Shown: piece by piece, positions 56,009 to 63,968 of the stretch
Layout of the letters: each line of letters starts with the position of its first letter
How positions within the stretch are numbered: the first letter of the stretch is position 1
NCBI GenBank assembly: GCA_052246995.1
Contig: JBQPWD010000002.1
Location: 75,307 to 139,306 of the forward strand
Source of the DNA: Candidatus Bathyarchaeota archaeon
GTDB taxonomy: Archaea > Thermoproteota > Bathyarchaeia > Hecatellales > Hecatellaceae
Reading direction: 5' to 3'
DNA: 64,000 nt
Program-made: the position numbers and the translations under genes
The notes under the pieces: generated by a model
Told to the model about the DNA's origin: nothing
What the model saw: only the letters and a program-made list of their open reading frames with translations
Databases searched by the model: none

Positions 56009-56024
56009 TCCAAAAATTGGAGAG
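56009..56024 (-). repeat. motif CTCTCCAATTTTTGGA (copy C, minus strand), about 85 nt upstream of atpD
   Basis: Plus strand reads tccaaaaattggagag; its reverse complement matches copies A/B with one fewer T. Confidence 0.7.
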
Positions 56025-60349: not shown

Positions 60350-60389
60350 CTCGTAAATACACCATCCAATTTTTTGGAGGATTACCAAG

Positions 60390-60405
60390 TCTCCAATTTT
60401 TTGGA
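60390..60405 (+). repeat. 16-nt motif TCTCCAATTTTTTGGA (copy A; a truncated copy TCCAATTTTTTGGA lies at 60365..60378)
   Basis: Read directly; identical 16-mer recurs at 63562..63577 and a one-T-shorter copy on the minus strand at 56009..56024. Confidence 0.8.
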
Positions 60406-60605
60406 TGTTGGAAAAACATCTTCTAAAAGTGGGGAAAAAGAGGTACCCCTTAGTGTAAAAAATCTTGGAAACTTAGGGTTTTTTCTCCATGTTTTGTTAT
60501 TTTGGTTAATTATGTATTACTATAACAACTTTTTCAACAATTTTCTTTATATAACTTAGATTATATAAAGAAAAATCTTTATATAACCTTGAGAAATAGA
60601 GTCTT

Positions 60606-61667
60606 ATGCAGGAAGACTTCTCTAACTTTGAATCTGTCGCCAGATGGATAAGTAACTTTCCAGATAGACCAAACACGAAGAAGAATTATCTTATTAGATT
60701 TAAAAAGTTTATTGATTGGATAGGAAAAAATCCTGATGACCTTATTGCTGAAGCAAAGAAAAATCCCCTAAAAATTCATAATAAAATAAAAGAATACTAT
60801 AATTTTTTAATAAAGAAAGGTTTTAGCTCTAAGACAGCTATCCTCTCCTATAATTGTTTAAGGTCCTTTTTCAAATGGAACGATATATTTTTAGGACCAA
60901 CCCCCCGAGGATTTAAAGGTAGGGTTGAATATGAATCTTCCCATATTTTAACACCTGAAGAGATTGCAAAAATGGTTGATGTATGTAATAACATGCGAGA
61001 TAGATGTGTGATAACTTTTTTAGCTCAATCAGGACAACGTAGTGGGGTTTTAACGGCTCTTAGATATGGGCATGTTAAATCTGGGTTAGAAAGAGGAGAG
61101 ACACCATTAATAATTGAAGTTCCAGCTGTTTTAAGAAATATTAATGGTGTAAATGTAAACAAGCTTGGAGAAAGCTATAGGTTTGCTGTTGGAAATGATA
61201 GTATTACATGTCTTAAAATGATGCTCAAGGAGAGAATTGAGAGCGGAGAAGTTATTGATAAGGATAGTTGGCTTTTTAGAAGTTATTCAAAAGTTAAAGT
61301 TGAAAAAAGTGGGAAAAAAAGGCCTATTAGAGCATCAAAGAGTGAAAGAGGTTTTCCTTTAACAACAGTAGCTATACGTGAAATAATTAATAAGTCTGCT
61401 TTAAAAGCAGGAATTCAGGGAAAAGCTTCAGACAAAAGGTATGAGGTTCATCCGCATATTTTCAGGAGATATTGGAATATGAGAATGCAGGAAGCAGGAT
61501 TAAGTGAAGATCTAAGGGATTTTATGCTTGGACATAAGTTACCTTATGGTGGAGCGTACAGCAAATGGTATCCTGATGCTATTAAAAGAGTATGGATTTC
61601 AAAAAATGTTGAAAAATATATTGCAATTCCATCAAAAACAATCTACGCGTATTCTGGACTACTTTAA
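60606..61667 (+). CDS. int: tyrosine recombinase / integrase (XerC/D-like fold)
   Basis: C-terminal catalytic motifs HPHIFRRYW (H-x-x-R), LGHK and nucleophile Y in YGGAY; N-terminal core-binding-like domain; intact 353 aa. Confidence 0.8.
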   Translation: MQEDFSNFESVARWISNFPDRPNTKKNYLIRFKKFIDWIGKNPDDLIAEAKKNPLKIHNKIKEYYNFLIKKGFSSKTAILSYNCLRSFFKWNDIFLGPTPRGFKGRVEYESSHILTPEEIAKMVDVCNNMRDRCVITFLAQSGQRSGVLTALRYGHVKSGLERGETPLIIEVPAVLRNINGVNVNKLGESYRFAVGNDSITCLKMMLKERIESGEVIDKDSWLFRSYSKVKVEKSGKKRPIRASKSERGFPLTTVAIREIINKSALKAGIQGKASDKRYEVHPHIFRRYWNMRMQEAGLSEDLRDFMLGHKLPYGGAYSKWYPDAIKRVWISKNVEKYIAIPSKTIYAYSGLL

Positions 61668-61720
61668 CTTCAAAAAACTTTTATAGACGAACTTCCAATT
61701 TTATAAATTCTGCTAGCTGA

Positions 61721-63259
61721 GGGAGAAGATTATGGGGTGTTATTTTATTTAGTAATAAAGAAGAGAATAAACCACGTGTAATTAAAATTTTTGACACAAC
61801 TCTAAGAGATGGAGAACAAACACCGGGAGTCTCTCTTTCACCTGAAAAAAAGCTTAGAATCGCCAAACTTCTTGATGAAGTTGGTGTTGATGTTATTGAA
61901 GGAGGTTTTGCTAGCGTCTCTAGAGGGGACTTTGAGGCTTTAAAGATTATGAGCCAAAGCGGGCTTAACGCTGAGATTTTTAGTATGGCTAGAGCGGACA
62001 TTAAAGATATAGATAAAGTTATTGAAAGTGGAGTTTGCGGGATCAACATTGTTGTTCCAGTATCAAAAATCCAGATTCAATACAAACTTAGAAAAACGTC
62101 AGATGAAGTTTTAAACTTAACATACGAGTGTGTTAATTACGCAAAAAAGCATGGGTTGATTGTTGAATTATCAGCTGAAGATGGCTCAAGAACAGAGGTT
62201 GAATTTCTTAAAAGCTTCTTTTTAACAGGTATTGCAAGTGGAGCTGACAGAATCTGCTTATGTGATACTGTTGGTGTTTTAACTCCTGAAAAATGTTATA
62301 AGCTTGTAAATACCTTATGCAAAAGCACCAACAAGCCTTTTAGTATACATTGTCACAATGATTTTGGTTTAGCTACAGCAAACACTATCATAGCTGTTAA
62401 GGCAGGAGCATCTCAAGTACATGTAACCGTTAACGGTTTGGGTGAGAGAGCTGGAAATGCAGCATTAGAAGAGGTTGTAATGGCTCTTACAAACCTTTAC
62501 GGATTTAAAGTTAACATAAAAACAAACAAGTTATACGAGCTTTCCACGACGGTTTCACGCTTGACAGGTGTTCCAGTTCAACCAAATAAACCTATAACAG
62601 GTGAAAATGCTTTTACTCATGAATCTGGCATTCACGTTAAAGCCATTTTAACCAACCCCGCCACCTATGAACCAATTCAGCCTGAAGTTGTAGGTGTTAA
62701 GAGAAAGCTTGCAATAGGTAAGCATGCAGGAATGTTTAGTGTAAAAACGATTCTCGAAGAAGAATTACACATTCATCCCTCGGAAGAACAACTTCATGAG
62801 ATTTTTATGAGGGTTAAAAGCATTGGTGATAAAGGTAAAACAGTAACCTATAGCGACCTTCAAGCTATAGCTGAAGCAGTAATGGGTCTTCCACAAATAC
62901 GACTAATCAAGCTTAAAAATCTTACAGTAACAACAGGAAACAACATTACACCTATGGCCTCTGTCGTGCTTGAAGTTAACGGTAAAGAACTCGTTGAAGC
63001 TGGTGTGGGAGTTGGGCCTGTTGATGCAGCAATAAGTGCTATAAAGAAGGCTATATCAACAGTAGCCGACATAATCCTTGAGAATTATCATGTGAAGGCA
63101 ATTACAGGTGGAACCGACGCTGTAGTTGAAGTTGTAGTAAGAGTAAGAAGAGGAGAAAAATCGGTTACAGCATTAGGTGTTCATGAAGATATTGTTATGG
63201 CTAGTGTTGAAGCAGTATTAAGTGCAATAAATGTATTGTTATCTTTAGAAATGAGCTAA
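61721..63259 (+). CDS. leuA: 2-isopropylmalate synthase / citramalate synthase family (LeuA/CimA) with C-terminal regulatory domain; start region frameshifted or non-canonical
   Basis: In-frame IFDTTLRDGEQTPGVS...HCHNDFGLATANT...; the reading frame opens at 61721 with no ATG/GTG/TTG before the LRDGEQ motif. The ATG at 61732 is in the -1 frame and would be in frame if the T4 run at 61743..61746 were T3. Confidence 0.75.
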   Translation, partial: GRRLWGVILFSNKEENKPRVIKIFDTTLRDGEQTPGVSLSPEKKLRIAKLLDEVGVDVIEGGFASVSRGDFEALKIMSQSGLNAEIFSMARADIKDIDKVIESGVCGINIVVPVSKIQIQYKLRKTSDEVLNLTYECVNYAKKHGLIVELSAEDGSRTEVEFLKSFFLTGIASGADRICLCDTVGVLTPEKCYKLVNTLCKSTNKPFSIHCHNDFGLATANTIIAVKAGASQVHVTVNGLGERAGNAALEEVVMALTNLYGFKVNIKTNKLYELSTTVSRLTGVPVQPNKPITGENAFTHESGIHVKAILTNPATYEPIQPEVVGVKRKLAIGKHAGMFSVKTILEEELHIHPSEEQLHEIFMRVKSIGDKGKTVTYSDLQAIAEAVMGLPQIRLIKLKNLTVTTGNNITPMASVVLEVNGKELVEAGVGVGPVDAAISAIKKAISTVADIILENYHVKAITGGTDAVVEVVVRVRRGEKSVTALGVHEDIVMASVEAVLSAINVLLSLEMS

Positions 63260-63561
63260 TATTAGCAATAAACTTTTCAAATTCTGATAATGAAAAAATA
63301 TTATTTTTGACATAATCCTGTACAAACTTATTTTTCAAGAGAAAACAGCTATTCTCTTTTTCATAATTTTTAAACAAAAAACGCATATTTTATATCTTAA
63401 AATATAATCAAGTAAGCAAGTTTTTCTAAAAAATTAGTTGATGGTAGATAAATTTTATTGATAAGACCCCTAAACTTCTACTTTTCTCTCAAATCTCCAA
63501 AATCTGAAAAGACCATTACAGTTAAACATAACCTAAAAAAGCACGATTACACCCTCATAAC

Positions 63562-63577
63562 TCTCCAATTTTTTGGA
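63562..63577 (+). repeat. 16-nt motif TCTCCAATTTTTTGGA (copy B)
   Basis: Exact match to copy A at 60390..60405; lies in a 615-bp ORF-free region between leuA and tRNA-Gln. Confidence 0.8.
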
Positions 63578-63874
63578 AGCAAGAAATGATAGCCTAGGTT
63601 TATAGCTTTATCTTGAAACTTTTAGATTAGTATCCAACGAAATACTTGTCAATGCAAAAATGTTGTTTTAAAAATAGACAGTATACCTCATCCAGCTGGC
63701 ATCATTTTTACAATTCTTTCGCCAAAACCGAACAATATGCTAATATACGAAGTTTGTAAACCTTGACTGGGATGACTTCTGCGTATGTCTTGTGGAGGAG
63801 ACTAAAATCTAATAAAGGTAGAATTGGAATATGTCTACGAAGTAGATGATGTATAAAGTTCCAGAGTTTATTTT

Positions 63875-63968
63875 TGGTAGCCCGGGGGAGATTCGAACTC
63901 CCGTCGGCAGGTTTCTCCTATCTTGGATAACCAGAGCCTGCCATGCTTGGCCGCTACACCACCGGGCT
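63875..63968 (-). tRNA. tRNA-Gln (anticodon CTG) with an about 18-nt intron in the anticodon loop; A1:U72 first pair; CCA encoded
   Basis: Reverse complement: acceptor AGCCCGG/CCGGGCT, anticodon stem GCAGG/CCTGC enclosing 25 nt (CTCTGG + about 18-nt insert + A), T-arm GGGAG-TTCGAAT-CTCCC, discriminator A then CCA; 91 nt without CCA. Confidence 0.75.

Follow-up and report, generated by a model that had tools for sequence, protein, structure and literature searches.

Candidatus Bathyarchaeota contig JBQPWD010000002.1 was analysed here over a stretch of 64,000 nt (hereafter the window), which carries a tyrosine recombinase gene (int), a homologue of the 2-isopropylmalate synthase gene leuA and a short palindromic repeat around them. 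We tentatively read int and the repeat upstream of it as a resident recombinase-plus-site module resembling XerS/difSL, an interpretation drawn from sequence comparison that we hold at slightly less than even confidence. The 16-mer repeated in the window is one arm of a composite site, in which two 14-bp palindromic boxes surround a 13/14-bp spacer, and according to this proposal the composite site would be the cis-acting target of the adjacent recombinase. Protomers of the recombinase would bind the inner half-boxes together with about three adjoining spacer bases (WWTTGGAGRG and CYCTCCAAWW), strand exchange would occur across a central region of 7-8 bp (TTACCAA in the window), and the most likely role would be chromosome dimer resolution. 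Single-recombinase Xer systems with the site directly upstream of the gene exist, such as XerS/difSL with its 356-aa recombinase (PMC1914069, PMC5357621), and Cortez et al. (PMC2958812) left unanswered how chromosome dimers are resolved in archaea that have no canonical XerA. Throughout the text, a box denotes the 14-bp consensus TCCAA-W4-TTGGA (5+4+5), and a pair denotes two boxes lying 27-28 bp apart, start to start; comparison loci of up to 21 kb are labelled L001, L003, L010, etc.

Identification of the Repeat in the Window

A first reading, made from the window alone (the sequence-only reading), had placed the 16-mer TCTCCAATTTTTTGGA at 60390-60405 and 63562-63577, and exact matches were found at both positions. 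What it described as a truncated copy upstream of the first 16-mer is present, but it is a full second box that differs in two flanking bases only: the 14-bp core TCCAATTTTTTGGA is complete there and lies 27 bp, start to start, 5' of the first 16-mer copy. A decayed copy, TCCAAAAATTGGA, was detected 4.6 kb upstream. With up to two mismatches allowed, the window contains four matches versus 0.20 expected, and none of 100 dinucleotide-preserving shuffles gave four matches, which rules out a chance repeat and agrees with the earlier statement that an exact repeat was unlikely by chance. A motif common across the genome was also ruled out, since the relaxed palindrome TCCAANNNNTTGGA occurs exactly at just three sites in the 64 kb. 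The three exact boxes and the decayed one all lie within 8 kb of int, a scan of the other 56 kb of the window for boxes returned none, and the window holds one full pair. The gene calls and the matches to PF00589 and NF002085 bear out that only int and the leuA homologue lie between the 16-mer copies. An Rfam scan of 59.5-64 kb gave the tRNA as its sole match, and a literature search with the box sequences found no relevant paper.

Conservation of the Box Pair in Close Relatives

The pair is present upstream of int in 100% of the close relatives (int 60-88% identical), with a spacer of 13/14 bp, and its spacing of 27-28 bp has been kept despite saturation at synonymous positions (Ks 0.7 to over 1.7). 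In an alignment of the upstream region from 8 lineages, the invariant columns were the box arms plus two isolated positions, and nothing else. The box centres read T/T in the window, and elsewhere T/A, A/T and A/A occur; given an A/T centre in either orientation, the box is effectively palindromic. The distance from the pair to the start of int ranges from 170 to 1500 bp overall and is usually 170-270 bp. It amounts to 640-700 bp in L010 and L012 because a LAGLIDADG endonuclease ORF intervenes (free-standing, 131 aa, PF00961 at 23.3 bits; 2808-3203 in L010 and upstream of 2717 in L012, two Hecatellales lineages), and in L005 the pair is 1.5 kb from int. Such a variable distance, sometimes with genes between pair and int, fits a recombination site better than an operator. 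As for the earlier suggestion of a shared regulatory palindrome, TCCAA-N4-TTGGA is indeed what has been conserved, but the palindrome does not behave as a common promoter element: three exact copies and one decayed copy in 64 kb, and the 170-1500 bp that separate the pair from the start of int, contradict a promoter motif of that kind.

In lineages that retain a DNA ligase gene, the first box overlaps the last ligase codons. This gene is located between the arginine decarboxylase gene and int in most relatives (L004 7998-9782, L006 8057-9796); it is absent from the window, where the pair has been retained despite its loss. In several Hecatellales lineages, a conserved 127-143-aa ORF with no Pfam match stands tail-to-tail with int (minus strand of L004, 11039-11422, L006, 11330-11761, and L010, 4261-4644); it is absent in the window. 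Thg1, present in relatives, is also missing there, and no remnants of the ligase, Thg1 or orf127 were found in the window.

Characterization of the Recombinase

Int matches the PF00589 profile (E 1.6e-11), as expected of the tyrosine recombinase superfamily. Among 22 homologues, residues R131, K186, R287, H310 and Y318 are invariant and H284 is found in at least 90%, and by their position these six residues would take the catalytic roles. An AlphaFold model (pLDDT 88) has a two-domain recombinase fold, for which the closest PDB structures are those of archaeal XerA (5hxy and 4a8e, E 5e-10 to 2e-8), followed by integron integrase, Tn1549 Int and Cre. However, the protein falls below the threshold of the NCBIfam XerA equivalog NF040815 (66.4 bits vs a cut-off of 220), and its best stretch against that profile comprises residues 22-157 only, the N-terminal part. 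Int has a XerA-like fold and belongs to a distinct, small family, for which 5.8 billion sequences gave 82 clusters at E <= 1e-3. The gene is under purifying selection, with a Ka/Ks of 0.09 relative to its 88% identical relative (Ks 0.73) and of 0.13-0.18 relative to more distant ones. A second tyrosine recombinase was not found in the 64-kb window.

Chromosomal Residence of the Locus

Assemblies of Candidatus Hecatellales and of other Bathyarchaeia contain int itself or relatives 60-88% identical to it, in the gene order CDP-archaeol synthase, arginine decarboxylase (ArgDC), (DNA ligase), int, (small reverse ORF), leuA, followed by citG, SUI1 and shikimate genes. The order ArgDC/DNA ligase-int-leuA is common to about ten Hecatellales/Bathyarchaeia lineages, and the orientation of int-leuA relative to the flanks is identical in all lineages and assemblies examined. 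The genes carried are of housekeeping type, namely leuA and, in relatives, Thg1. A search for excision junctions gave none, all contigs with this ArgDC running into int or stopping earlier, and neither an empty site nor an alternative junction was seen in the relatives. Conserved synteny, purifying selection and the lack of an empty site do not fit a recent integration or a decaying element; judging from these comparisons, int is inherited vertically and resident on the chromosome.

The int protein returned 0 matches in a search of 50,697 phage records, and its only matches in a plasmid search were two weak and partial ones, both haloarchaeal. The pair pattern had 0 matches in viral contigs. 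Single-box 16-mers matched viral contigs 42 and 115 times, none with an int homologue nearby, and these matches were judged to be at chance level. An exact-sequence look-up for leuA found no record. The sequence-only reading had offered, as one interpretation, that the repeats are the ends of a minimal or decayed integrative element. That proposal is not supported, in view of the context conserved at 60-88% int identity, the purifying selection and the housekeeping cargo, as well as the absence of phage relatives, the absence of the pair from viral contigs and the presence of a box outside the bracket (56009). The relatives that it predicted, in which int would be absent and a single repeat left, did not appear, no empty site or alternative junction being found. 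Its counter-test, an int-leuA order kept with an unconserved repeat, gave a mixed outcome: the order is conserved, which counts against mobility, but the repeat is conserved too, which counts for function. Moreover, att sites overlapping the tRNA, presence/absence variation, an empty site or mobile cargo, as expected of an integrative element, were not found; the box lies past the end of the tRNA by 297 nt in the window, 7 nt in L003 and 24 nt in L010. The locus serves as a warning that an integrase gene with flanking direct repeats and a tRNA is not callable as an integrated element without comparative evidence.

The constant orientation of int-leuA to its flanks, in all lineages and assemblies examined, also bears on an invertible or excisable switch that would turn int-leuA on or off by phase variation. 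Palindromic arms would permit inversion or deletion, and the box-centre orientation varies among relatives (T/T, T/A, A/T, A/A), but with that constant orientation and a distal site in the window that is just a half-site, such a switch is unlikely to the point of being scarcely credible.

Contig ends within 100 bp of the pair, considered as a sign of heterogeneity, numbered 11 versus 6.9 expected (P about 0.08), which is not significant. Scaffold gaps of 100 N, rather than in-place masking, occur upstream of int or an int homologue at L009 9885-9984 and L017 9548-9647, and assembly breaks in the same region were observed at the start of L001 and the end of L145, three independent assemblies having a break or gap. 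Long palindromes are the likely technical cause of these gaps and breaks, which might otherwise reflect population heterogeneity.

The Downstream Box and the tRNA-Gln Gene

As reported earlier, a tRNA-Gln gene with an intron lies beyond the right-hand repeat. The 297 nt between box and tRNA (63578-63874) form an ORF-free insert with no similarity in L003/L007 and no Rfam match. In L003 and L007, 7 nt separate the orthologous box from the 3' end of this tRNA, whereas L010/L126 have a second full pair at this place, 24 nt from tRNA-Gln, with a spacer unlike that of the proximal pair. In the window, the downstream box has CTC before it, as in the right arm of the pair, and its partner box is absent. 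With no partner arm and a different central sequence, this box should be unable to recombine with the full site; likewise, proximal and distal sites with different central sequences should not recombine with each other. We propose that the 63564 copy is either a conserved satellite or the decayed form of a second site next to tRNA-Gln, and that it does not mark the boundary of an element. Further single boxes stand outside the bracket, at 56009 in the window, at -4.6 kb in L007 and at -9.8 kb in L006, and the L007 position orthologous to the decayed 56009 box contains a perfect TCCAATTTTTTGGA. Single boxes are evolutionarily less stable than the pair, and we read the outlying ones as satellite or decayed arms.

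These bracket-like arrangements are also what an ancient integrative element would leave if it had inserted beside tRNA-Gln and since been domesticated, the pair and the distal box being attL/attR-type remnants. The bracket (pair, int, cargo, and a box or pair at the 3' end of tRNA-Gln) recurs in the window, L003/L007 and L010, and two soil loci, L131 and L063, combine a pair, a recombinase, a small ORF of putative winged helix-turn-helix type and a single box. In addition, several relatives have a pair that extends into the 3' end of the DNA ligase gene, an overlap often seen with attB sites, and the boxes have variable neighbours (ligase, Thg1, 297-nt insert). This scenario is nevertheless improbable: the cargo consists of housekeeping genes whose synteny is shared by the lineages, neither presence/absence polymorphism nor an alternative junction turned up, the box is 7-297 nt beyond the tRNA and does not overlap it, and the differing proximal and distal central sequences would rule out mutual recombination. 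Boxes also occur outside the bracket, there are no viral relatives, and the plasmid matches are just two, weak and partial.

The 18-nt intron of tRNA-Gln(CUG) is found in the window, L003 and L007, and none is present in L010 (7177-7252). ARAGORN calls the tRNA of L003/L007 as tRNA-Arg(tct), probably from a misplaced intron.

Box Pairs in Metagenomes and Anatomy of the Site

A scan of metagenome contigs by DNA alone, with the pattern TCCAAWWWWTTGGA-N(12-15)-TCCAAWWWWTTGGA, yielded at least 120 loci. Most of the pair matches listed come from soil or sediment, on contigs with a GC content of about 50%, and have one common neighbourhood. Its upstream half contains a DNA ligase gene, two dCTP deaminase-like genes, an HD nucleotidase gene, an AbrB-like ORF and a 145-aa ORF, and the pair is followed by a tyrosine recombinase gene, a small ORF and a convergent cytidylyltransferase gene; we read the small ORF, which has no Pfam match, as encoding a winged-helix protein. 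A tyrosine recombinase adjoins the pair in 61 of the loci, which corresponds to about two thirds of the loci whose flank on that side is 700 bp or longer. The pair upstream of int, together with a recombinase at 61 of at least 120 loci found by pattern, is the linkage expected of XerS/difSL-like modules. The soil recombinase has a 359-aa form, a full-length int homologue (residues 4-325, hhalign 98%), and a 200-aa form that aligns with the catalytic domain only, one homologue of the latter being labelled Candidatus Bathyarchaeota. Beyond the recombinase, no protein family common to the Hecatellales and soil loci was found.

The gene-oriented consensus of 50 unique 41-bp soil sites reads TCCAA-WAWW-TTGGA, GRGATGnCAWYYC, TCCAA-WAAA-TTGGA. 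The spacer is partly dyad-symmetric and differs by lineage, being GAGATGnCATCTC in recombinase-linked soil loci, GTGTTCATGAACAC in recombinase-less loci, GGGTTTATAAACCC in L008 and GGATTACCAAGTC in the window. Counting three spacer bases per side as arms, the succession of arm, 7/8-bp centre and arm would correspond to the usual geometry of tyrosine-recombinase sites. Several pairs lie within 500 bp in L110 (3363-3870) and L094 (6845-7460), and a head-to-tail box array was observed in L092 (1188-1243).

A number of observations weigh against the boxes being the target of the recombinase. The putative link between the two is by association only. In about 23 soil loci (25 with two related ones, 108 kb in total), the pair lies between convergent genes, and no recombinase is present in the fetched DNA. 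The same boxes stand beside very different recombinases (23% identity, or N-terminal domain missing), which would be surprising for sequences recognised by the recombinase. No such boxes were found upstream of more distant int homologues (38-44% identical; L015, L017, L139-L142), and L139 carries a different dyad there, GTCTCCAA...TTAGGAGAC. The site departs from the canonical 11-6-11 dif, with arms that are themselves palindromic, and extra boxes within a few kb, plus the second full pair in L010, are unusual for dif. Finally, identical box centres are direct in 21 cases versus inverted in 1 among 62 unique pairs, which suits a dimeric DNA-binding protein.

Several of these points lead to the main rival explanation, in which the boxes are bound by some other dimeric protein (Lrp/FFRP-like or another helix-turn-helix protein), have an architectural or regulatory role (insulator, looping, centromere-like cluster) and are merely syntenic with the recombinase. 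Palindromes of 5+4+5 with an A/T centre, phased at 27-28 bp, are typical of dimeric-factor sites, and FFRP sites resemble phased palindromes of this style. That the box sequence stays the same next to recombinases that differ widely, and at about 23 loci that lack a recombinase, would also be accounted for, as would the clustering of satellite single boxes within a few kb. However, the recombinase is the only protein common to the Hecatellales and soil loci and no candidate binding protein emerged, the pair is located at the 3' ends of genes at a variable promoter distance, and the other 56 kb of the window contain no boxes. On balance, a different binding protein seems unlikely, although it deserves serious weight.

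The neighbourhood also bears on whether the boxes are origin-recognition-box (ORB)-like elements of a replication origin. The TCCA...TGGA dyad resembles a mini-ORB, DNA-metabolism genes are nearby (ligase, dCTP deaminase, HD nucleotidase), and the intergenic region of the window is AT-rich. An archaeal origin would be expected to have an orc1/cdc6 gene next to it and ORBs on either side of an AT-rich unwinding element, whereas no annotated neighbourhood contains orc1/cdc6, the gap between the boxes is 13 bp and holds no unwinding element, the flanking 400 bp of the soil loci are GC-normal and not AT-rich, and no GC-skew turn occurs at 60 kb. An origin at this locus is unlikely, and in our view very much so.

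Comparison with Known Systems

Among the three interpretations of the sequence-only reading, a Xer-like system comes closest, as the boxes travel with a resident XerA-like recombinase across Bathyarchaeia; int is nonetheless no member of the XerA equivalog, and the site does not have the 11-6-11 structure of dif. A dif of 28 bp consists of 11-bp inverted arms and a 6-bp spacer, whereas the site described here has 14 + 13/14 + 14 bp and palindromic arms. A XerA/dif system would also be expected to have a single site per chromosome, in the terminus region, for dimer resolution; the window contains one full pair, and no skew turn was seen in it.

The candidate module is similar to XerS/difSL of streptococci and lactococci in having a single chromosomal recombinase of ~355 aa with the site upstream of its own gene taxon-wide, and in being the sole conserved element of a variable neighbourhood (PMC1914069, PMC5357621). 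It differs in that int has no detectable sequence relationship to XerS, and in that the site is 41-42 bp long with palindromic arms and lies 170-1500 bp upstream, compared with a 31-bp site abutting the gene. A further difference is that the present module is known from sequence alone and belongs to the Archaea, which to our knowledge lack FtsK. With archaeal XerA/dif it shares the nearest solved structures (5hxy, 4a8e) and the best NCBIfam match, and both have chromosomal, vertically inherited two-domain tyrosine recombinases. However, int is ~70 aa longer than XerA, with only an N-terminal match of 66 bits vs 220, the XerA site is a 28-bp 11-6-11 dif (PMC2958812), which is not the case here, and the dif of Thermococcales is not adjacent to xerA.

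In elements of the pNOB8/SNJ2 type, too, the integrase gene is not split, short direct repeats lie on either side and one end is next to a tRNA gene. Unlike them, this locus has its repeat outside the tRNA, a syntenic housekeeping cargo, no presence/absence polymorphism, no phage relatives and two weak, partial plasmid matches only. Islands of the IMEX type (dif plus degenerate dif, e.g. the Neisseria GGI) resemble the locus in having a full site on one side, a partial or divergent one on the other, and a segment of a few kb (PMC5357621), but the segment here includes the recombinase gene itself as well as genes of core metabolism, and its conservation extends over an order.

A more far-reaching version of the recombinase-plus-site proposal is possible but rather doubtful, namely that Bathyarchaeia have a novel Xer-type system, with a divergent single recombinase and a 41-42-bp "triple palindrome" site beside it replacing XerA/dif. 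The palindromic arms and satellite half-sites might then give directionality control, as FtsK does in bacteria. How archaeal Xer recombination is biased towards resolution without FtsK is the general question on which this locus bears, and a defined 41-bp substrate with a 353-aa enzyme, conserved across an abundant uncultivated class, makes it testable in vitro.

Promoter Region of int and Start of leuA

The features of the locus are listed in Table 1. Two TATA-like repeats had been noted 5' of int, and both copies of TCTTTATATAAC are present, but the first lies in the 5' arm of a dyad. The second, ~20-25 nt upstream of the int ATG, is kept as ATCTTTATATAAC in L003, L007, L008 and L006 and is likely the TATA box; the int mRNA would be leaderless or have a short leader. 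The dyad, just upstream of the TATA-like box, has a 14-bp stem that is conserved in the 8 lineages, across which 7 of the 14 predicted pairs are kept through two-sided changes. An operator palindrome and a hairpin are both conceivable.

Table 1. Features of the int-leuA locus and its surroundings (window positions).
Feature	Position	Strand	Details
Composite 41-bp site	60365-60405		Box 1 TCCAATTTTTTGGA 60365-60378; 13-bp spacer GGATTACCAAGTC 60379-60391; box 2 TCCAATTTTTTGGA 60392-60405
Dyad	60536-60579		Arms 60536-60554 and 60561-60579
TCTTTATATAAC copies	60544-60555 and 60576-60587	+ (second copy)	Second copy TATA-like
int, intact tyrosine recombinase, 353 aa	60606-61667	+	PF00589
leuA, 2-isopropylmalate synthase homologue	61721-63259	+	NF002085, 617 bits
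Solitary box TCCAATTTTTTGGA	63564-63577		Exact box sequence, CTC on its 5' side
tRNA-Gln(CUG), 18-nt intron	63875-63968	-	3' end faces solitary box, 297 nt apart
Decayed box TCCAAAAATTGGA, 3-base centre	56009-56021		Between ATP-synthase D gene and 181-aa ORF

The start of leuA had been described as aberrant, and the sequence bears this out: the frame opens at 61721 and its first ATG/GTG/TTG is at 61949 (76 codons without a start), despite the conserved FDTTLRDGEQ motif at 61790, ahead of this first canonical start. A Shine-Dalgarno-like GAGGGAG is followed by an ATG at 61732 that opens a 6-codon ORF, ATG GGG TGT TAT TTT ATT TAG (MGCYFI*), and the leuA frame is +1 relative to this ORF (which is in the -1 frame of leuA). 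The leader stretch at 61710-61760, GAGGGAG...ATGGGGTGTTATTTTATTTAGT, has counterparts at L003 1475-1520, L004 11545-11590 and L010 4770-4815, those of L004 and L010 reading GTG GGG TAT CGT TTT ATT TAA. Conservation of TTTTATTTA followed by a stop suggests that either a shifty stop brings about programmed +1 frameshifting or the six codons form a leader ORF, and expression of leuA seems to depend on a conserved +1 frameshift. In L001, one gene call has its start at an ATT, which corresponds to position 61742 of the window.

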